DNA of 63,136 nucleotides, filler included, from Dimargaris cristalligena (GCA_003614675.1; 27 parts of 27 records of this genome joined end to end with filler, not necessarily neighbours in it); one strand, 5' to 3'. Positions 36,066-51,746 are shown, numbered from the whole stretch's first letter. Program-made: numbers and translations. Notes: generated from the sequence alone by a model not told the origin.

Positions 36066-37799
36066 GATTAAGGGTGGAATTAAATGGGGGAGGGGTGGTA
36101 AAGTAATTGGAAGTGGTTGGAAAGAAGGATGAAATGAGTGATTAAAAAAGTTCAATATGAATTTGGAGCGTAAGATTGTGGTTGTGCGTGGGTAATGGCA
36201 TGAGATCGTGAATGAGTGGAGAAAATGAGGCGTGATGGGCGTGAAATTGCAAATGCAATTGCGGATGATGAGATGGATGGGCTGCTTGGTCTGAGTTTTT
36301 TGGGAAATAGGCCGACGTGGCTTCTTTAAATACCAAAAGGAAGCCCCCTTCGTGTATGGTAATCTACTCCAAGGACTTGCCGTTGGGTATCGCCACCGCT
36401 CCTACCTCCTCTTTCACGTACACGTTGAGCAGGCCTAATCAAACCATTTTTGGTGTCCCTGGCTCAAATCTTGGGTCCACACTTCTAACTCACTATTATT
36501 TTTTCACGTCCTGAATCAATCAAACCACCCGGGGGTTGCAAGAACTTCGCCACTGCCAGCCAACTAACTGCGTGAGGTTGGTCCGATCAGTCCCAGCAGT
36601 GAGGGACTCCTGCGATGGCGGGGCCCCGGACTGAAAAGGAGGGGGAAGAGTGATTATCCTCTCTGTATACACACCCCAAGGGGCCGACTGAGTTGTTACT
36701 AATACGGTGCTCCACCATCGTGTCTCCACTGATATGGACTTTTTTTATCAATGTTGACTTCAGGGGAGAAGGTGGGATTTGGCACAGAATCGATAGGATA
36801 CATGTTTTTTTTAACCAAAATGTGCCTTTACAAGGTGGTCAACTGCAACCCCTTTATCCCAGTGAACGATATAGTATGGGGTGTGCCATGTAATACTAAC
36901 GGGTATCATTGGTCCCAGGGACGGGGTCAGGGCACCAATGAATAAACAATTTGGGAGTTTTAATGAGTCGGTGGGGTTCAGCCTTTATTAAGCATGGATG
37001 GTTATGGGACTAGTCCAGATTTGGCAAGTTGTACTAGCCGCCAGAAAAAAACCCCATTCGTTTCCTCACTAACGATCTTTACGGTCTGTTGGATTCCGCA
37101 GGCGGTGGGACAGGGAGGCAGGGGGAGGTGTTGACTATCACGATGACCCTGGATTTCGTATACACACTGTTAGTAAATTATTCCAACGAATTGGAGTAGA
37201 AGGAGGTCCAATGTAATTGCATGGTGAAATATCCGTTTGAGGTGTGTCAAGTTTTTTACCGGTTGGAAACAGCCCCCCCCCTTGATATTTAGATATTAAC
37301 ACGATAACCAAAATCCTACACCGTTGGACTGGAGTGTCTACCCACATCAAGCAGGCCTGACTGAGGACTAGTCATTGTTGAATTATCGAGGGGCTGGGCT
37401 AAGTCTGGGACGAAGGATGGTGTGCCACTTTCCCCCTTACTCCTCCAAACTTGACAAGGCCCGTTTCACTAACTCCCAAATCAGCGCATTTCTCGTATTT
37501 TACTGGACATGCAATACATGAAGTCCGCGTCCCTAATTCAATTAATTGTAGGTATCCAAATATATTGATGGTTTTATTTATAATATTCTAATAACTTCGA
37601 ATGTGCATTTTATAAAGTTCGCTATTAGCGAACTCAGCGGTAAAACGAGCCCGCNNNNNNNNNNNNNNNNNNNNNNNNNNNNNNNNNNNNNNNNNNNNTT
37701 AATTAATTAANNNNNNNNNNNNNNNNNNNNNNNNNNNNNNNNNNNNNNNNNNNNAGGTAGTCATGGAGGACCTCGAACGCGAAACCACGTGTCTGCTGG

Positions 37800-38351
37800 T
37801 CATTCATTGGGTGGCTCCCAGGAGACGATGGTGATGTCCGATGACGTGTTCGTCTGCCGGCGGCGCGCAGCAGCACGCGGCGCCTCCACAGGCCGTACTG
37901 AGGCTACTGGGTTGGCAATTGCGCGGCTCGGCGTAGAGCTGGCCGTCGCCAACGCCTGACAGACCTTTTGCGCGTAGGCGAGACGCTTTGCCGGGCTCTT
38001 GGCGTTGTAGGCCCCGACGGCATCCCACGTGAGGCCGAGCTGCTGGATATTGCGAGACAGAATCCAACTTCCTACGTAGGCGTTGACACAAGCATCAAAC
38101 AGATGCGCTCGGGTGATGCCATAGCGCGCCAGGCTGGGTAGCCAGCTTGAGTTGATCTGCATGAGACCGATGTCGGTACTGCCATCGCTGTTGGCGCCAA
38201 CGGCGTCCGCGTGCATCCGCGACTCCACCTGGGCGATGGCGCGCACCAAGCGCGCATCGACCTGGTGGAACCTGGCGGCTTCGTCAATACAGTCGGCAAA
38301 GGCCAGCGCCGGCAATAGCGCCATGACGAGCAGGAATGCAGAGCCCTTCAT
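37800..38351 (-). CDS. Bacterial lytic transglycosylase (SLT domain, VirB1/IagB-like)
   Basis: Signal peptide plus AIAQVES, DIGLMQINS and AVGAYNA motifs. ATGA overlaps with neighbours. Confidence 0.93.
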   Translation of the reverse strand: MKGSAFLLVMALLPALAFADCIDEAARFHQVDARLVRAIAQVESRMHADAVGANSDGSTDIGLMQINSSWLPSLARYGITRAHLFDACVNAYVGSWILSRNIQQLGLTWDAVGAYNAKSPAKRLAYAQKVCQALATASSTPSRAIANPVASVRPVEAPRAAARRRQTNTSSDITIVSWEPPNE

Positions 38352-38725
38352 GACGCATCCCGATCGAAAAGGTCACGGGTCCGCTCACAGCGATGCGCGG
38401 GAATGGCTTCGCCGACGCGGACAAATGCCGTGCAGCAGGGCTGCCCGTCCTGGGCGTACTGCCATTCCTTGGGGTACTGCGCGTCCTCGATGGTGTATGC
38501 AAAGGTGGCCCCGACGATGAGGCAGGCGCTCGCATCAAATTCGAGAGGTTCCATCCCGGCGTGCGTAGCTCGCACGCAGTTGCGGCACCAGGCGTCGATG
38601 AAAAGCTCTCCTTCGACGCCGTTGTGCGGCCGGTATTTCTCTCCGGCGCGGGCCGCACAGAACTGGGCGAGACTGTCAGGAAAGATGGCGCGCGAGTTCA
38701 TCGACGGGCTCCGGGGATGAATCAC
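38348..38725 (-). CDS. Bacterial/phage-type Cys-rich hypothetical protein
   Basis: Translationally coupled (ATGA overlaps) between ssb and the transglycosylase. WCRNC...C...CC pattern. Confidence 0.75.
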
Positions 38726-39114
38726 AGTGGAATCTCGTCGTCGCTCTCGAAATCGTTAGCGCCTGCCGTGCCACGATCGCCGGGCGCCTTGCCAAGCATC
38801 TGCATTTGGTCGGCGACGATTTCGGTGCTGTATTGCTTCTGGCCGTCCTTCTCCCACTGGCGAGTCTTGAGGCGGCCTTCGATGTAGACCTGCGAGCCCT
38901 TCTTCAGGTATTCGCCGGCGATCTCGGCCAGTCGACCGAAGAAGGCGATGCGGTGCCACTCGGTGGTTTCCTTCATCTCGCCGCTGGCCTTGTCCTTGTA
39001 GCGGTCGGTGGTCGCCACGCGGATGTTGGTAACGGCATCACCGCTGGGCATGTAGCGCGTTTCGGGATCGGCGCCGAGATTGCCGACGATGATGACTTTG
39101 TTGACGGATGCCAT
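38722..39114 (-). CDS. ssb: Single-stranded DNA-binding protein (short, plasmid/ICE-type)
   Basis: [21 protein letters not shown]...[31 protein letters not shown], acidic tail DDEIPL, AGGAGG RBS upstream. Confidence 0.97.
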
Positions 39115-39150
39115 GCTGTAGGTCCTCCTGGTGCTAGTGCGGGTTGGGAA

Positions 39151-39363
39151 TCAATCGCCTTTGGGCTGGTGCGCGCGTACATACGCCAGGCACGGTTCGT
39201 TGCGAACAGGCTGGTCGAAGAACACGCGCGTCGCCAAGGTGCTCAGCGTATGAAATGCCGCGGCATTGACGATCTGCAGGCGCTGCAGCGTTGCTTCGAT
39301 TTCGTCGAAGCCCTCAGCTGCGGCATCTGCGAGCGCCTGCCGTTCAAGAACAGTCAGGTGCAT
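39151..39363 (-). CDS. Small bacterial hypothetical protein (70 aa)
   Basis: ATG at 39363 preceded by GGAGAAG. Same strand as the operon, GC3-biased codons. Confidence 0.55.
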   Translation of the reverse strand: MHLTVLERQALADAAAEGFDEIEATLQRLQIVNAAAFHTLSTLATRVFFDQPVRNEPCLAYVRAHQPKGD

Positions 39364-39783
39364 GCCAACTTCTCCCGGAAAATCACGGACAGTCAGAAAC
39401 GGCAAATCCGCTGGGTAAGCTGGCTCGCAGGCAGAGAGGGCAGACAGAAAATCGCCCGAGACACGACACCGCGCGAGGCTGGAATGGCAACGCCACTGCT
39501 CGTGAGCGCGCGCACGTTGGCGTGAGGCTGTGACAGCCGCAGCGCGCAACGTTGCACGCGCATACGGAGATGATGGAAGGCGGCGCGAATATTCGCGCCC
39601 GCTTTGGCTGAAAAGGCGAGTGCCATGGTTCATTCCTCTGTTGGGAAACTGGGGCTTTTGCGGTAACGCGCGCTTCGGTGGTGCAAACACCTTGGCGAGC
39701 GATTCGTTCAGATGACTATGGGCCGTTTTTCATGGGCGTGATCTGTTGAGCAGAAGGGTTCTTTTCAGGAAGACGTTTGCGCT

Positions 39784-39994
39784 TTAACCCACGACATTGC
39801 CGGTCGTGAACGTAAAGTTACGCGAGAACGCCGTGCCGTTGACGGTGCCGGTCAGAGTGACCGAATACTGCGTATTCGGCAGCAGCGGCGACGTCGGGTA
39901 GGCGACGGCCTGATATGCACCAAGAGCTTTGTTCGGGTCAGTTGTCGAATTCAGGATCTGAAGTGCAACGCTGCCTGACGGGCCAGTAATAGAG
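39784..39994 (-). CDS. C-terminus of a bacterial Ig-like domain protein (5' truncated)
   Basis: Hand translation gives ...PLLPNTQYSVTLTGTVNGTAFSRNFTFTTGNVVG*, resembling Big_5-type C-termini. Confidence 0.6.
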
Positions 39995-44660: not shown

Positions 44661-45294
44661 NNNNNNNNNNNNNNNNNNNNNNNNNNNNNNNNNNNNNNNN
44701 NNNNTTAATTAATTAANNNNNNNNNNNNNNNNNNNNNNNNNNNNNNNNNNNNNNNNNNNNAGATCTGAGTTGGGCCATTTATCGATCCGATCGTCTATGG
44801 AGGTCCAAAAATGGCCTAAAATAAGACCCATTTCATGTTCAATTAGCCCAATTGAAATAAGGACCCCTGGGCCATTTCTGGAGCATAGTTGAGGTCGAGG
44901 TGCGTTAGTCGAGGGTGAGGGAGTGAAGGTGGGTGTTAGCGGAGGGGTTTAAAGGAGGTGGCGCTGAGGCCGTCACCCCGTAGATCGAGGGTAGTCGATC
45001 GGAGGGGTGTAAGGTTCGCAGGTTCAAGGCCAGGAACGTCCCCCGCAGCGTGCGACCGGAACGACCTTGTGCATGTGACCTGTCCTGGGACTACGGATTC
45101 GAGGGAGGGTGTTAGCGCAGTCGATCTCCTCAAGGGGACCCTTCAGGGGATGGGAGATCGATGGAGCGTGGCCGACCGACCTTGTGCAGGAGTTGCAGAT
45201 TGGTGTTGAACTGTTGCATGTTAACTTGAGTCAGCTGGATCGGTGGGTAGTGAGGGTGTCCTTCATGGGGATCGTCGTGGGCTTCCTGGTGGCG

Positions 45295-46967
45295 GAGCCG
45301 CCTGTGGCCGTCTCAGGTTGAACCTATAAATCAGTGCTGCACGGTTGATGACGCACAAGTCGCTCCGCTTACCTATTGGTTATGCATGGAGCCAGCTGTG
45401 GCTGTCTCGGGTAGTGTATCAATACTGGTTTACTATTGAGACGGCCACAGGCGGCTCCTTTTATGATGATCCTGTTAATCACTGGTGAGGGTGTAGTTCA
45501 TTTAAATCGGGGTTGCACGGTTGATTATGAATCGAGGTCGCTTCGCTTAACATGATGACAACGATGGAGCCAGCTGTGGCTGTCTCAGGTAGCAACTTGT
45601 TAACAATTCATGCTGCACTGTTGATCGCGATGGTGACTGATCTTGATGAAGTCGTTAAATTGAGCCGCCTGTGGCCGTCTCACTGAATTATTAATTAGGG
45701 TTGCACCGTTGAATGGAGATTCGTGATCGTTGTACTGGATGAGACAGCCACAGCTGGCTCTTTGTAGGAGACCACTTAGTAACCCTTGCTGCACGTTGAG
45801 ACAGCCACAGCTGGCTCCTTTTAGATGAGTCATTTAGAGCGGTGCTGCATCGTTAAGCATGAACGAGGTCGCTTCGCTTACTGTTGATCCTACGTTGAGC
45901 CACCTCGTGGGTGTCTCGGGTGGGTTACTAATTGATGCTGCAGGTTGATGATGAACGATGTCGCTTATCAACCGATGCAGGGAGCCGCTGCATGTTGAAC
46001 TTACAGATCATGGCTGCACCGGACTCCCTTTCGTCGAGACAGCCACGGCTGGCTCCTTTGGTTGTATACTCACTTATGACAGGTCTTGGCTGCACGGTGG
46101 CCTCTCATTTAGAGGGTCCTCATCGGGAAGTCTTCCATCTAAAAGTGATCATCATCAGGTGAGGTCTTCCATTTAGAGGGTGGCACTCCTTTGGAGTGGA
46201 GCCGCCTGTGGCCGTCTCGGATCATTGGTTTTAGGTGACTTTCCTGTGGAACTCCTGATTAGGGTGATTCTCCTGCGGAATGACTTATTAGATGATTCAT
46301 AATTCATGCTGCACGGTTGCTTACCGGATGACTCCTTCGGAGTGGTTGATTAACAGTGGGTTATCCTGTGGAACCCTTTATCGGGTGGTTCTCCTGCGGA
46401 AGTGGAGCCACCTTGTGGGTGTCTCACCTTGATCCGGTTAATCCTTATCGTTGAGACAGCCACAGCTGGCTCCTTTTGCTAACAGGTCGCTTACTTAACA
46501 CCACTGGATAGCACCACCTCGTGGGTGTATCAGGTGGCGCTTAAGATTAAGGCTGCAGGTTGAGCATGAATCGGGTAGAGCCGCCTGTGGCCGTCTCGGA
46601 TAGTAACTTTGATCCATTCGGATTCACTCGGTTTAATCCTGTACTGATTAATGCTAGTATGGCTCACTTTACGTCACGGTTGCATCTACTACTAAGCTCT
46701 TCGAGGTCGCTTACCATCGTTATCACAAGGAGCCAGCTGTGGCTGTCTCGGGTGGTTATAATTCATGTTGCACCGCTTGAGACAGCCACAGCTGGCTCCC
46801 TTGCTGTTTAATCCTGCTGATTATGGAGTTCATCTTTATGATTGAGCCGGCTGTGGCCGGCTCAGGTCACCTACCAATTAGTGCTGCACCGGTCTTCAAC
46901 ACAGCTTATGATGCACGAGTCGCTTCGCTTACCATCATCACTGAATGGAGCCAGCTGTGGCTGTCTC
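45295..46967. repeat. Mosaic array of about 18 short imperfect palindromes (GAGCCAGCTGTGGCTGTCTC and variants) in both orientations, with two accessory motifs
   Basis: Forward copies at 45295, 45389, 45567, 45662, 45897, 46199, 46405, about 46510, 46578, 46730, 46844, 46948. Reverse copies at 45438, 45741, 45798, 46036, 46453, 46779. Confidence 0.95.
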
Positions 46968-48889
46968 GGCTAACTTCTAGACTACGGTTNNNNNNNNNNN
47001 NNNNNNNNNNNNNNNNNNNNNNNNNNNNNNNNNTTAATTAATTAANNNNNNNNNNNNNNNNNNNNNNNNNNNNNNNNNNNNNNNNNNNNATAGTATCTCC
47101 AACAGTATCGATAAACAAGGTTACTATTCTTTCTAAGGCCGGTACTTCTTTTGGGGGTTGCTGCCTACCTTAGTCTCACCTGCTCTTACTAAAAATGGGA
47201 GGGTTGTTTTTGGTCTCTTACAAGGCAGCACAATTCCTATTATAGCTCCCGCAGCTTCACTTTCTTTCTCGAATATAGCCACCCAATTGGTGGTATTATA
47301 ATTATAACAACACTATAGGTGGTGTGTAACCTAATGACCAGTCATTGATGGCCAAAACGTAAACGGCCTTTAAGCCCGATTTAATTAAAACAGCCAAATG
47401 AGTGGGGTAATCCATGTAGCGTTCACTAGCGCCCGGATATTCAACCGAAACGCCGTATTACTCTGATGGGGAGAGGAGTTGGTTGCCCAGTGCCACTCGT
47501 GATACATTGGTTTTATAGATTCGCCACCTACTTCACCCAAAACCCGCCCTAACTAGATGCCGGATACACAATTTGAAGGTGACGGGGCCCAAATGCCAGA
47601 ATATAGGGAGTGCGTCAAAGGGGACGGACAAGGGCGAGCTAATGGAAATAGGAATCGGGGTTGGATAGAGAATGAATCCCCCCTTCCTCTCTCTTCCTCT
47701 CTCTCTTTTTTTTTACCCCCGAGCCATTTCCCTACCATATACGTCTTCATTTGGGCCTTTGAGAATTCTGAGGTCCCTGACTCTGGCACCAAAGGAGCAT
47801 GGGACCCCGATAGGAGAAATGTAGTTCGCTCACTGTAGGGAAAATATATGAGGACATAGAAAAGTTGGTGTATTAAGCTCTACACTTTAAATGTAGGTAG
47901 GGGTGGGTTGGCCGGGGTCCCCATCCATCATTTACCACTACTTCCAAAAGGTAGGACATGGTAGACAATGCTATTTTAACTAGGGAATAGGCATGGCTTT
48001 TGACCAAACCTTGTCGTATCACCATTAGAGGTTCCGCATGAACCTACTGCTTAAAACAAAGAACGGCATTTCTCCGTTGGTGGTGTAGGGTATAAAAGAA
48101 TATCTATTCAAATTGGATACTGCTACAAACATCGGGGTGAATTGCATAAAGTTGGTTGGCCGCGTACTTTAACCGAATGAGAAGCAGCAAAATATATAAG
48201 CGCCCTTTACCTGAAGATTTTACTTTTCTTTCTAACCAAATATCCACGCCGCTCATAAGCGCATTTTTTTAGCGAATAGTGAAGTCAGCAGGGGACACTC
48301 TGAGTGGTTAATATGGGAGGACAAGACTAACTAAATGAATTAATATGGTTGGTCAGAAACAGGAGAGCAAAATAGCCTGACTAGGATAATGCTCCCGTTC
48401 GACCTGATGCTAGTGTGTCTAAGGGGGTAGAGTTTTAGAGAGTGAAGTTACACAGGCTGCAACTGCCGGACTAGTATGATCAGACAGAAGCAAAGGGAAT
48501 GGCTGTTGCAGATATACTAAATGAATCCCGATCCAAAATAAAAGCCGCAGTGGTTAGGTGAGTAGTAGTGATAAACAACAGGTGGAGCCCCAAGTGAGGT
48601 GGTCCATGAATTTGGGGGCTTATTTTGGCACACTACTCTGTATGGTCCAGCCCAACTGTGCAGGCCAGTGTAGCATTGGTGGCCCAATTTTTATCAGAGA
48701 GTCTAGAAATGATTAGAAAAAGGGACAGTGTAGGTGACCAGAGAATATGGCTTCAATTTATAAGTATATCAGGGACAATTTACCAATAACGAGCTCCAAT
48801 TCCCTAACCTATTTACTTATTTTTACACTCTACAATACTTTGCCCTTTTAACTAACGGGCCCTAGTCATCTTATCCCCTATGTACCAAG

Positions 48890-49144: not shown

Positions 49145-49474
49145 ATGAGTTATTGGTAGAGTGGATTTATAGGCATTGGCTAAACTGAGGCAACTAAATA
49201 ATTACTTACCTTAACCACCATGGTAAAAAAAATAGTGCTCCACAAACCTAGTTGTTAGAGACATCACACTATCAACCATTAAATGGTGTCTATACTGATT
49301 ATTTGGTAGCATTCCTGANNNNNNNNNNNNNNNNNNNNNNNNNNNNNNNNNNNNNNNNNNNNTTAATTAATTAANNNNNNNNNNNNNNNNNNNNNNNNNN
49401 NNNNNNNNNNNNNNNNNNATCCCCTCCCATTGTTCCATTCACATTTTCCTCAACCATGTCCGAGGCACGTAACA

Positions 49475-49933
49475 CTAACCCTCTAACCCTAACTAACCCT
49501 CACTAACCCTCTAACCCTATCTAACTAACCCTAACCCTAACTAACCCTCTAACCCTCTAACCCTCTAACCCTCTAACCCTCTAACTAACTCTAACCCTAA
49601 CTAACCCTAACTAACCCTCTAACCCTCTAACTAACCCTAACTAAAACCCTCTAACCCTCACTAACCCTCTAACCCTCTAACCCTAACCCTAACTAACCCT
49701 CACTAACCCTCTAACCCTAACCCTCTAACCCTCTAACCCTAACTAACCCTAACTAACCCTCTAACTAACCCTCTAACCCTCACTAAACCCTCACTAACCC
49801 TCTAACCTAACCCTAACTAACCCTCTAACCCTCTAACCCTAACCCTAACTAACCCTAACCCTAACCCTAACCCTAACCCTCTAATCTAACCCTCTAAACC
49901 TAACTAACCCTCACTAACCCTCACTAACTCTAA
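49475..49933 (+). repeat. Irregular telomere-type repeat tract (C-rich strand)
   Basis: About 460 bp of mixed CTAACC, CTAACCCT, CTAA and CTCA units (G-strand TTAGGG, TTAGAGGG, TTAGTTAGGG, TTAGTGAGGG), followed by A10. Confidence 0.88.
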
Positions 49934-50077
49934 AAAAAAAAGTACAATGCCAGGACCTATCTAATAAACAACATTAATCCCTAGGCTAATGAAACTATAT
50001 CACGACCCCCAAACCCTTACCAAAGCTGCCTATTACCACACTAACTAATAACCTCAGTACTCTTAAGTTACTTTTAG

Positions 50078-50650
50078 GTGAGGGGCTCCCTGCTCCGGTC
50101 AGCCATGTCACATAGAGTACTTAATAGACTACCTGCTCTGCCAAATCCCCACTTGCAGATGCAGGAGTACCTCTATACCCAGATAGACTCAGGTATTCTT
50201 AGCCAGCGGATTCACAAGATGGCCCGTGTTCAAAGGAAATGGTCTTCTCCTAATATTCCCATGGACAAGTGCCTTACTCTTCCATCTAGTGAGCTCCGTA
50301 AGCAAGCTATTCAAGTGAGGTGTGGCTCTCTTTGGCTAAAGTATTACTGTACCAGGTGTGGTATGGGCTATCGGCACTCCCATATTACTAGGTGTAAGCT
50401 CTTTGACCCAGGGCCCTGGACTATCTATTTCCAAGAGGACAAGGCTACCTTTGCTAAGGATGATAGGTATTACTCTCCATTGGATGCAGCACTTAATCAT
50501 CAGCAATATGGCCACTTAAATACTCTTATTCAGCAAGTCTTTGGTAAAATTTCTACACTTCCACCATCTCTACTCTCCTTTCCCTTATATATATTCTTTA
50601 TACATAGGGTGTTACTTGCTTCCCTCTTATTACTTATATTCCCTCATTAA
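50078..50650 (+). mobile_element. Probable LINE ORF2 C-terminal fragment with zinc knuckle
   Basis: CTRC-x7-H-x3-C motif followed by 'SPLDAALNHQQY'. CpG-depleted. Confidence 0.55.
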
Positions 50651-51746
50651 CTCCAAATGGGCTGGATACCAAACAATACTTGGTCCTTTCTAGTATATAT
50701 ACTTCTTCTTACCTTCTCCAGTTTATATACCATCTTGTTTTACAACTTCTTATGGGGTAGTTATATTACTACCCTATTCTAAAGACATCTCTTACTTTCC
50801 CCTATCATATACTTATTACTAGTCTCCCCTAAATAGGATGGATATAACACTATATTCTCTCATCAAATGATAGGACATAGTACTATACTGCCCTTTCTAT
50901 ACTACTTACATCTCTACTTCTCCTACCTGGATACCACTAGCTACCCCTTATACTATTAGTTTGAGTATACCTAACTACCTATACCTTTCTCTAATACTTT
51001 CCTTTACTATTTACTACTACCTTTAAAGTGAGAACAACTAGGGTCACAGTACCCTCTAACCTTAAAATAGTAGTGCTTAAGGTACTTTCTTACTCCCTAT
51101 GGTCTCCTACTCTCCATATAGACTATACTTTAGGTATCCTAGTTCTTGACCTATGATACCCTATAGCTTTTATAGATAACATTTTCCCTCTATCTACCTT
51201 AGCTATAAGTAGAAAACTCTTAGTACTCTAGTACCCCTTTAGCTATATCCAGTCTTACATCTGGGCAGTTCTCTGTTGCCTTAGGGTCTTCTACTACTTG
51301 TAAGCTATGGAATATACTTCCTACTCTCTAGACCTACTGAGTTACTCTCTCCTACCCCCCCTTAGGGGTCTATTCTCACAAATCTATGAGTGTCTGAGTA
51401 ATAGCTAGTTCTGACCTTGGGTATTCAATTACTTAACTCTTGAACTAGTTCAACTCAGGACCACATAGTACTTACCACCCCCCCTCTTTTACATAGCCTA
51501 TCCTACATAACATAGGATACTCCATCTTCAAAAACCTCTCTAAATACCTCTTATAGTAGGTCTCTCCTGGAAAAGCCCTATACAAATAAGTTTCTCTCCT
51601 CCTTATACACTACCCCTATAGGTAGTTCCCTTACCTCTTGTTACCTNNNNNNNNNNNNNNNNNNNNNNNNNNNNNNNNNNNNNNNNNNNNTTAATTAATT
51701 AANNNNNNNNNNNNNNNNNNNNNNNNNNNNNNNNNNNNNNNNNNNN

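Follow-up and report, generated by a model that had tools for sequence, protein, structure and literature searches.

Which kind of DNA is a dense array of small, mismatched hairpins that lies, free of genes, in a fungal genome assembly? The question is raised by positions 45295-46967 of a 63,136-nucleotide stretch of the Dimargaris cristalligena assembly GCA_003614675.1 (the window), in which 27 short contigs, drawn from a 30.65-Mb assembly of 2220 contigs, are joined by spacers. An earlier note, written from the nucleotide sequence alone, had likened the array to the repetitive extragenic palindromes (REP) and bacterial interspersed mosaic elements (BIME) of bacteria, and had also considered organellar, extrachromosomal or foreign DNA. 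Our analysis demonstrates that the hairpin array is a real part of a large gene-free DNA family in this fungal assembly. As to its role, we tentatively favor, with less than even confidence, a natural, non-coding and cis-acting lattice for the docking of proteins, set in nuclear-type, unmethylated DNA and working like box-bearing centromeric or pairing-site repeats; a protein-binding array, one of the options of the earlier note, is the likeliest general class.

The hairpin array, its family and its unit

The array is carried by a stand-alone contig of 2229 bp (G000:C2087, hereafter C2087; window positions 44761-46989, without assigned strand). Since assembly spacers flank this contig on either side, the adjoining window sequence is unrelated and provides no true neighbors; the genes and repeats of the window are fungal. 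A recount of the hairpins between 45295 and 46967 again gave 18, 12 on the plus and six on the minus strand, and the stem variants named before, including a perfect copy at 46844, were all present. Simulated sequences of the same dinucleotide make-up (n = 200) yielded no hairpin match, and neither did a reversed-pattern control run across the whole assembly. The hairpins of C2087 are separated by 27-186 nt. To call these spacers largely unique, as had been done, is only partly correct, since two more conserved boxes stand in them at set distances and a faint common consensus persists. Read on the plus strand, the stretch from 45295 to 46967 is built of degenerate units of ~93 bp in which box C comes first, hairpin H follows after 15-17 nt and box B after about 20 nt more; inverted hairpins are interspersed.

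In line with the earlier description, the array contains no credible open reading frame (ORF): none is longer than those of Markov controls under the standard, the TGA-read-through or the TAA/TAG-read-through code, and none of the nine array ORFs scanned reached the Pfam cut-off. We found no tRNA, and no Rfam family at its gathering score; of eight sub-threshold matches the best was a miRNA model placed on an opposed hairpin pair. The array has a real three-base periodicity, but its source is GAT/GTT-type expansions in the long spacers. Such triplet-like expansions (GAT/GTT/GAC; L042:2980-3330 and other long spacers) produce the periodicity without a kept reading frame. CpG dinucleotides are intact, as had been noted, with an observed-to-expected ratio (o/e) of 0.75 in C2087 versus 0.05-0.30 in 13 of the 27 window contigs; the long terminal repeat (LTR)-type repeats of the window have lost CpG while the arrays have kept it. 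This cannot be taken as a sign of non-nuclear DNA, because the gene-bearing contigs of the assembly likewise have ratios of 0.70-0.87. The array could not be assigned to a known family, again as stated before: no match was found in the collections searched, among which there was no eukaryote genome collection.

A degenerate hairpin pattern gave 146 matches assembly-wide, compared to none for the control. All 146 are confined to seven gene-free contigs, C2087 and its relatives C1219, C1338, C1677, C1840, C1933 and C1957, which speaks against the dispersed mobile hairpins envisaged earlier. Together these contigs amount to 27,792 bp, and we found no gene in these 27.8 kb. When up to three mismatches to six reference variants are allowed, the family holds 196 hairpins, 128 in array sense and 68 inverted. 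C1840 continues into C1933 via a 30-nt overlap, and C1957 consists of two opposite-facing array arms. The family exceeds what was assembled: among four strings picked from many in read contigs on C1219, one mapped to C1338, and the three family-type strings were missing from all family loci examined.

The units follow a strict grammar. Box C (13 bp) occurs 119 times (≤2 mismatches), always on the array strand, and 64 of its 65 exact matches in the assembly fall on the seven contigs. A hairpin follows 117 of the C boxes; it is an array-sense hairpin 15-17 nt downstream in 71 cases and an inverted one in two. Viewed from the hairpins, a C box lies 15-19 nt upstream of 73 of the 128 array-sense copies versus four of the 68 inverted ones. 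Box B, with its TGCA core, is found 18-22 nt after the hairpin in 45 of 63 adjacent cases, and the complete unit measures 91-98 bp in 7 of 12 cases. When 45 units with gaps of 16 nt were compared, pairwise identities were 0.94 in box C and 0.86-0.87 in the hairpin arms, as opposed to 0.41-0.42 in the spacers. Because the spacers keep a few ancestral positions, they are drifted copies and not acquired DNA; that they are near random in sequence at an almost constant length would be hard to explain without selection on distance.

The inverted hairpins are more uniform than the others, with a single variant accounting for 47 of 68 versus 28 of 128 array-sense copies, and they often sit at or just past box B. 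We infer that they are a younger subfamily that was inserted or converted into the lattice. A classical satellite of homogenized head-to-tail monomers is ruled out: Tandem Repeats Finder returned no rows for C2087, and 30-mers are scarcely repeated (169 of 27,413 distinct ones recur within the family). The only long recent duplication of the family is one of 151 bp in C1338 (L041:402-552 and L041:1965-2115, 99.3% identical); a shorter tandem duplication lies near L009:1356-1460. Accessory modules, among them a CCCTGA-type hairpin and a double-hairpin-like motif, recur in array sense in three to five copies each (L040, L041, L042, L043), and so do half-hairpin relics of inverted copies, at the same loci and in the same numbers.

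On C2087, the array-sense hairpins comprise four copies of the G6 subfamily (45295-45314, 45662-45681, 46199-46218 and 46578-46597), four of the A6-G7 subfamily (45389-45408, 45567-45586, 46730-46749 and 46948-46967), two of the A6-C7 subfamily with a 5-nt loop (45897-45917 and 46405-46425), a decayed A6-C7 copy (46511-46531) and a copy with a perfect 8-bp stem in which the mismatch has been lost (46844-46863). The inverted ones, on the minus strand, are a G6 copy (45438-45457) and five A6-G7 copies (45741-45760, 45798-45817, 46036-46055 with one loop change, 46453-46472 and 46779-46798). Complete C boxes, all on the plus strand, precede their hairpins by 17 nt at 45359-45371 and 45537-45549 and by 16 nt at 45868-45880 and 46919-46931. 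Three further plus-strand C boxes are shortened: one that has lost a 5-bp repeat (45960-45967), one ahead of the decayed hairpin (46486-46493) and one that retains the 16-nt gap (46706-46713). Fourteen B boxes, all on the plus strand, span 45336-46889 and start at 45336, 45512, 45612, 45700, 45788, 45844, 45937, 45987, 46013, 46089, 46308, 46552, 46767 and 46883.

Stem, box C, end modules and composition

The hairpin is 20-21 nt long and has a stem of 8 bp that is perfect in only five of the 196 copies. Its fourth pair is a C.T mismatch in 189 copies; this mismatch, to which the earlier note had drawn attention, is kept as at sites that are read as folded DNA. Pair 6 is A-T in 120 and G-C in 73 copies (Watson-Crick in 193, with two pair types), and pair 7 is G-C in 90 and C-G in 37, while being unpaired in most G6 copies (C.C in 49, A.C in 15). 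The compensatory stem changes proposed before withstood testing: 53 distinct variants show two-sided changes at three pairs, and none of 500 shuffles reached the 35 cells observed, with slid controls giving at most eight. About three inherited events underlie these counts, and the number of covarying pairs is by itself not beyond shuffles (129 of 500). Arm-to-arm repair could yield covariation but would erase the mismatch; the scarcity of perfect stems favors recognition of an imperfect stem. No pairing outside the hairpin was detected on either strand (29 units; 46 units), and no consensus RNA-like structure beyond it, again on either strand. An attC-like long stem is ruled out, as the flanks do not pair. 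In all ten common variants the hairpin is more stable on the bottom strand.

Box C can be read in two ways. Its bottom strand spells GCGNAGC in 106 of 119 copies, an extra-stable DNA mini-hairpin known from the phage G4 origin, ssiA of RSF1010 and the N4 promoter (PMC13037366). Position 7, the N of this word, deviates in 19 of 119 copies versus 15 of 714 at the remaining core positions; the copies are not independent, and among the 29 distinct variants of the box position 12 is as variable as position 7. The stem of the mini-hairpin has 2 bp. Box C is also a direct repeat, CGCT-N-CGCT, and on this reading the free N is explained without folding. In ten boxes one of the two repeats, and thereby the mini-hairpin, is gone; five of the ten retain the gap of 16-17 nt.

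The arrays possess end modules. Module M is present in six diverged copies (~70-80% identity), of which four precede the beginning of an array and two lie in inverse orientation where an array ends, and C1219 is bounded by inverted M copies at both ends. On C2087 the M core occupies 44920-45080 on the plus strand. A second G-N-A word with a free N is found in all six copies of M (45044-45053 on C2087). Beyond M lies region Z, represented on the plus strand of C2087 by 44771-44941, which includes the start of M and is 78% like C1338:2588-2751, where it is inverted. An 11-mer within Z (44872-44882 on C2087) occurs five times in the family end regions, over three contigs. Region Z of C1338 folds better than all of 100 shuffles (z -3.35), whereas that of C2087 folds weakly (z -1.70; 15 of 200 shuffles were as good). 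On C1338 a new array begins after Z. Searches from the outer ends of C1677, C1840, C1338 and C2087 reached no further contig, and the start of C1957 was compared with the contigs examined here.

With a GC content of 0.42-0.46, the spacers are near the gene-bearing contigs (0.44-0.50) and far from the mitochondrial (0.21-0.24) and virus contigs (0.37). T exceeds A in eight of eight array stretches and G exceeds C in seven of eight, and both skews go with the orientation of the units in either arm of C1957. A or T runs of length four are strongly depleted (o/e 0.08 in the 11.8 kb of array tested versus 0.45-1.99 in 35 other segments, the lowest of which is C2087 itself), mostly through a lack of AAA and TTT triplets. 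T runs number 22 compared to 113 expected under an order-1 model, a deficit that is gone under an order-2 model.

Explanations for the arrays

The reading as a protein-docking lattice in nuclear-type DNA starts from what the sequences show: an old tandem unit of ~93 bp has drifted to near-random identity save for its three boxes, with order, strand and the C-to-H distance kept, and diverged, inverted end modules bound the multi-kb arrays. The selection would come from a trans-encoded protein complex that touches box C and, at a set spacing, the hairpin as well, and that recognizes the latter, in part at least, as an extruded stem containing one mismatch. Inverted hairpins may later have spread through short copying or conversion events, and the arrays may serve chromosome segregation or pairing. 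This reading draws on the contrast in identity between boxes and spacers, the C-to-H geometry and its retention next to shortened boxes, the pattern of pairs 6 and 4, the GC content of the spacers and the lack of RNA-like structure beyond the hairpin. It also has a precedent. In Meloidogyne, CenH3 is described on divergent short tandem repeats that share a 19-bp GC-rich dyad box (PMC8097292). The combination of divergent short units and a conserved dyad box is found here as well (boxes 0.86-0.94, spacers 0.41), and going by that description the two systems also share mosaic arrays, a box of ~20 bp and under-representation in the assembly. In contrast to what is described for Meloidogyne, our arrays combine three boxes at a fixed gap with a stem whose mismatch is kept and whose variants covary, and they have an inverted subfamily and end modules as well; every unit differs, unlike the homogeneous monomer families reported there (PMC8097292). 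At most, the lattice may work like the Meloidogyne centromere.

Several findings weigh against this reading. The stem covariation together with the kept mismatch, the GCGNAGC word on one strand in 106 of 119 boxes and the strand skew that tracks unit polarity all fit single-strand processes as well or better. Typical centromeres are AT-rich, whereas A and T runs are strongly avoided here (o/e 0.08). Tandem Repeats Finder detects no array, so this is not a homogenized satellite. None of the contig ends arrives at a gene or at a known repeat, so that a chromosomal position can only be presumed. Moreover, the DNA is present in runs of three organism labels and the assembly has two rDNAs and two cox1 genes, which leaves more than one candidate owner.

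If the array is nuclear and native, it would be a candidate for a centromere or pairing site that is defined by sequence; the literature that we searched showed none for this fungal lineage, and the three boxes would be exact baits for a binding protein. Arrays that conserve boxes are known as such; in the literature searched we found neither a description of this array nor one of an array that likewise unites three boxes and a gap tight to one base with a mismatched stem that covaries, an inverted subfamily and inverted end modules. The kept mismatch, the covarying stem and the one-base-tight spacing make the question of duplex versus hairpin recognition testable with oligonucleotides.

The strongest competitor, which we regard as a serious though unlikely possibility, is that the arrays are the origin or nicking lattice of a gene-free selfish replicon (a nuclear plasmid, minichromosome or defective element). 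A trans-acting primase, polymerase or HUH-type enzyme would read the mismatched hairpin and the GCGNAGC mini-hairpin, each of which is the more stable form on the bottom strand, and the inverted M and Z modules would be ends or iteron-bearing origins. The bottom-strand preference of all ten common hairpin variants fits such a replicon, as do the variable N of GCGNAGC (19 of 119 versus 15 of 714), the free N of the word in M in six of six copies, and the good folding of the 11-mer-repeating Z of C1338. So does the fact that, for two of the samples or studies with the DNA, further runs lack it. Mini-hairpins of this type occur at the G4 origin, ssiA of RSF1010 and the N4 promoter (PMC13037366); on the bottom strand the word is present in 106 of 119 C boxes, with N as the most variable core position. 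On the other side, the direct-repeat reading explains the free N equally well, ten boxes have lost repeat and mini-hairpin alike, position 12 varies as often as position 7 among the 29 distinct variants, and the 2-bp stem compares with 5 bp in N4 promoters; moreover, no primase or polymerase is linked to the box. Region Z of C2087 folds only modestly (z -1.70).

The guide tetranucleotide of IS200/IS605 elements pairs with the cleavage site at a fixed distance. In 46 units, the three position pairs predicted for such IS608-type guide pairing had no excess complementarity, and the profile of the Y1 transposase (Y1_Tnp, PF01797) found no match in the assembly, which may itself be incomplete (6 of 14 control genomes were positive). 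These results speak against a replicon of this type. If the arrays do belong to a replicon, it would be an undescribed gene-free DNA element that is kept by folded-DNA signals.

A bolder proposal is, in our view, likewise unlikely. It takes the arrays either for a set of gene-free segments or minichromosomes of ~7 kb each, with inverted modules at their borders, or for centromeres in an early-diverging fungus. They would be specified by DNA that is recognized in its folded state, a lattice of ~200 repeats in which the mismatched stem and the GCGNAGC mini-hairpin lie on the same strand with 16 nt between them, and in addition by an inverted hairpin that spreads separately. If true, eukaryotes would have here an equivalent of sites that are recognized by structure, among them REP and attC, served by a protein provided in trans.

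The arrays might also be the internally repeated arms of a large non-autonomous, foldback-like DNA transposon, with the boxes as transposase sites and M and Z as terminal inverted repeats (TIR); we consider this improbable. Foldback-type transposons have long inverted arms, and CACTA elements have subterminal ends packed with short repeated boxes. The inverted M modules at both ends of C1219, the opposite-facing arms of C1957 and the six M copies of ~70-80% identity resemble foldback or TIR transposons. Unlike in foldback and CACTA elements, we found no terminal motif, target duplication, host flank or transposase beside any module; no flank is assembled, and Y1 was the transposase family searched. 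On C1338 the module is followed by another array, the module searches found no other contig, and the LTR-type repeats of the window have lost CpG while the arrays have not.

That the family is an unassembled part of a very long rDNA intergenic spacer of one of two eukaryotes, with enhancer repeats and spacer promoters, is very unlikely. A 20-nt word at the end of the large-subunit (LSU) gene of the rDNA contig C850 is common to C1219 (E 0.001), half of the hairpin recurs five times as a 14-nt word in the spacer subrepeats of C850, in the same relative orientation, and the spacer of the second rDNA contig, C1293, has a similar GC content (0.42). These links extend no further: the family has no longer alignment to C850 or C1293, both of whose rDNA units are open-ended, the 14-nt word is one repeated event, the correlation of tetranucleotide z-profiles with C850 is at most 0.06, and modules that face both ways are unlike a tandem spacer.

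A still smaller chance attaches to the non-coding repeats of a large DNA virus with gene contigs in this assembly, acting as origins or enhancers in the manner of homologous regions (hrs). Two virus-like contigs, C680 and C1902, are indeed present, and the hrs of baculoviruses resemble our family in being palindrome-bearing unit arrays with imperfect palindromes at several loci and no coding role (PMC4535591). As described in that source (PMC4535591), hrs consist of three to eight conserved 64-bp units between viral genes; their whole units of a few hundred bases are well conserved, whereas here there are ~200 hairpins with drifted spacers and no viral gene in cis. We found no link or common motif with C680 or C1902, which have a GC content of 0.37, compared to 0.43 in the arrays, and an excess of A/T runs (o/e 1.75-1.80 versus 0.08 in the arrays). 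The searches of outside collections covered viral, metagenome, prokaryote, plasmid and phage sequences, and their blanks say little about other fungi. No array was found in the viral or phage collections: the viral contigs gave no match to two hairpin patterns and the M core, a pattern of box C joined to the start of the hairpin matched once at each of 25 viral loci, and the plasmid and phage collections gave no match.

An organellar location, as the earlier note had considered, can hardly be upheld. Invasion of organellar DNA by double-hairpin elements (DHE) or palindromic elements would be in keeping with the several small accessory hairpins and the double-hairpin-like motif in three copies, and DHEs, described from chytrid and fission-yeast mitochondria, are likewise small, GC-rich, possibly mobile hairpins in fungal DNA (PMC10085805). 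Compared with the elements described there, ours is a single mismatched hairpin in dense, ordered arrays on a background of 43% GC, and it is missing from the mitochondrial contigs examined. The spacers have a GC content of 0.42-0.46 and not the 0.21-0.24 (~22%) of the mitochondrial contigs, and the two share no motifs: H, C and Z were absent from the whole of C55 and C1020 and from ~21 of the 34.5 kb of C182, and the genome-wide hairpin pattern had no match on mitochondrial contigs. The family has no tRNA, rRNA or gene, and C55 already ends in a 3.6-kb inverted repeat.

Equally slight is the prospect that the arrays consist of genes for small RNAs or guide RNAs, with processing at the hairpins. 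The strict polarity of the units, the position of the hairpins where units adjoin and the low number of T runs (22 versus 113 expected, order-1) would suit it, but no Rfam family reaches its gathering score, no consensus structure extends beyond H, the T-run deficit is gone under the order-2 model, and the spacers keep an ancestral consensus and have no match to mitochondrial contigs. Guide RNAs for mitochondrial genes were rejected as a candidate, with one 16-nt chance match and no tblastx match (G.U pairing not considered).

The bacterial identity first suspected, REP/BIME from a contaminant or endosymbiont, has become barely credible. REPs are described as imperfect palindromes of 20-50 nt with a conserved 5' tetranucleotide, mostly GTAG, and an associated TnpA-REP (PMC8266576). 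The family shares with REP/BIME, as portrayed there, the imperfect 20-21-bp palindromes, the conserved stem mismatch, both orientations and mosaic clusters, and differs in its lack of GTAG and of a detectable Y1 transposase, in being neither intergenic nor dispersed, in its eukaryotic assembly and in its strand-locked boxes (PMC8266576). Of the four features compared, only the palindrome with stem irregularity is found; tag, Y1 gene and dispersal are not. GTAG stands 5' of the hairpin in 1 of 196 copies on one strand and in none on the other (the commonest 4-mers reach 22 and 50 of 196, respectively), and the hairpins lie in gene-free blocks (27.8 kb without genes) and not between genes. A bacterial-type contig does occur in the window. 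Prokaryotes offered only isolated single matches, none of them with box C nearby, among 185,579 genomes; by collection, metagenome contigs gave 21 loci and genome contigs 10, with one match each and with box C (≤1 mismatch) in none of these 31.

Source of the DNA and other features of the window

The assembly contains two cox1 contigs (C55 and C1020) and two nuclear LSU contigs (C850 and C1293), the latter ~75-84% alike over long shared blocks; at least two eukaryotes have therefore contributed DNA to it. For mycoparasites such as Dimargaris, the single-cell genomes in the literature are reported to derive from dual cultures and whole-genome amplification (PMC6784888). Between 77 and 97% of the words of C1219 were found in six DNA runs with three organism labels from three studies, or two studies if a possible source run is set aside; four further runs from the same sample or study as two of the holders had next to no C1219 words. 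There was no RNA run among the listed holders. Long pieces of C1219 matched with 0-1 differences in all four runs compared, and from this agreement an assembly or amplification artefact is rejected for this sister contig (C2087 was not in the comparison). The DNA of the family is natural and stable; a host DNA held in common or library carry-over may account for its distribution. Summed contig depths of C1219 were ~5-10 in two runs and ~500-2200 in two others, values that are not copy numbers as there was no single-copy control. In a check for copy-to-copy rearrangement, the joints had sides of at most 28 nt and are explained by the common hairpin; as contigs drop rare variants, inversions may have escaped notice. 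The firm lesson is that the short contigs of this assembly mix more than one eukaryote, so that ownership has to be checked before any biology is assigned.

Some of the contigs used for comparison have features of their own. The mitochondrial contig C55 (54,572 bp) has a terminal inverted repeat of 3.6 kb, 99.97% identical and with a tRNA-like cluster, and therefore looks like a linear chromosome; cob and the mitochondrial LSU are on the separate contig C182. C1020 is a second cox1/atp6 contig with no TGA in the exon read, and together with C1293, the second nuclear rDNA of lower GC content, it shows that DNA of another eukaryote is in the assembly. C850 is a GC-rich, divergent rDNA unit with an LSU region of 5.1 kb and spacer subrepeats of ~33 bp rich in GAGACGG, a word that is also half of the hairpin. 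Its 5' spacer and the very start of C1957 share a 13-nt word, which is within chance for the lengths involved. The virus-like contig C1902 (L130:230-620) has an AT-rich tandem repeat of its own, ~40-60 bp and unrelated to the lattice.

Elsewhere in the window, positions 37755-39994 are a bacterial-type contig with 61% GC and a lytic transglycosylase SLT gene (PF01464, E 7e-19), probably a contaminant or mobile-element fragment. The high-GC contig at 2385-4663 (CpG o/e 1.10, GpC 1.42) bears a ThrE exporter gene and is unlike the other fungal contigs in composition; it possibly comes from the second eukaryote. At 49419-51646, ratios of 0.11 for CpG, 0.53 for CpA and 1.53 for TpA amount to a signature like that of repeat-induced point mutation (RIP). 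Positions 1-2284, like 32 other places in the assembly, contain LTR retroelement pol fragments with a dUTPase domain; many of the 33 dUTPase matches in the assembly lie in long or stop-broken frames.

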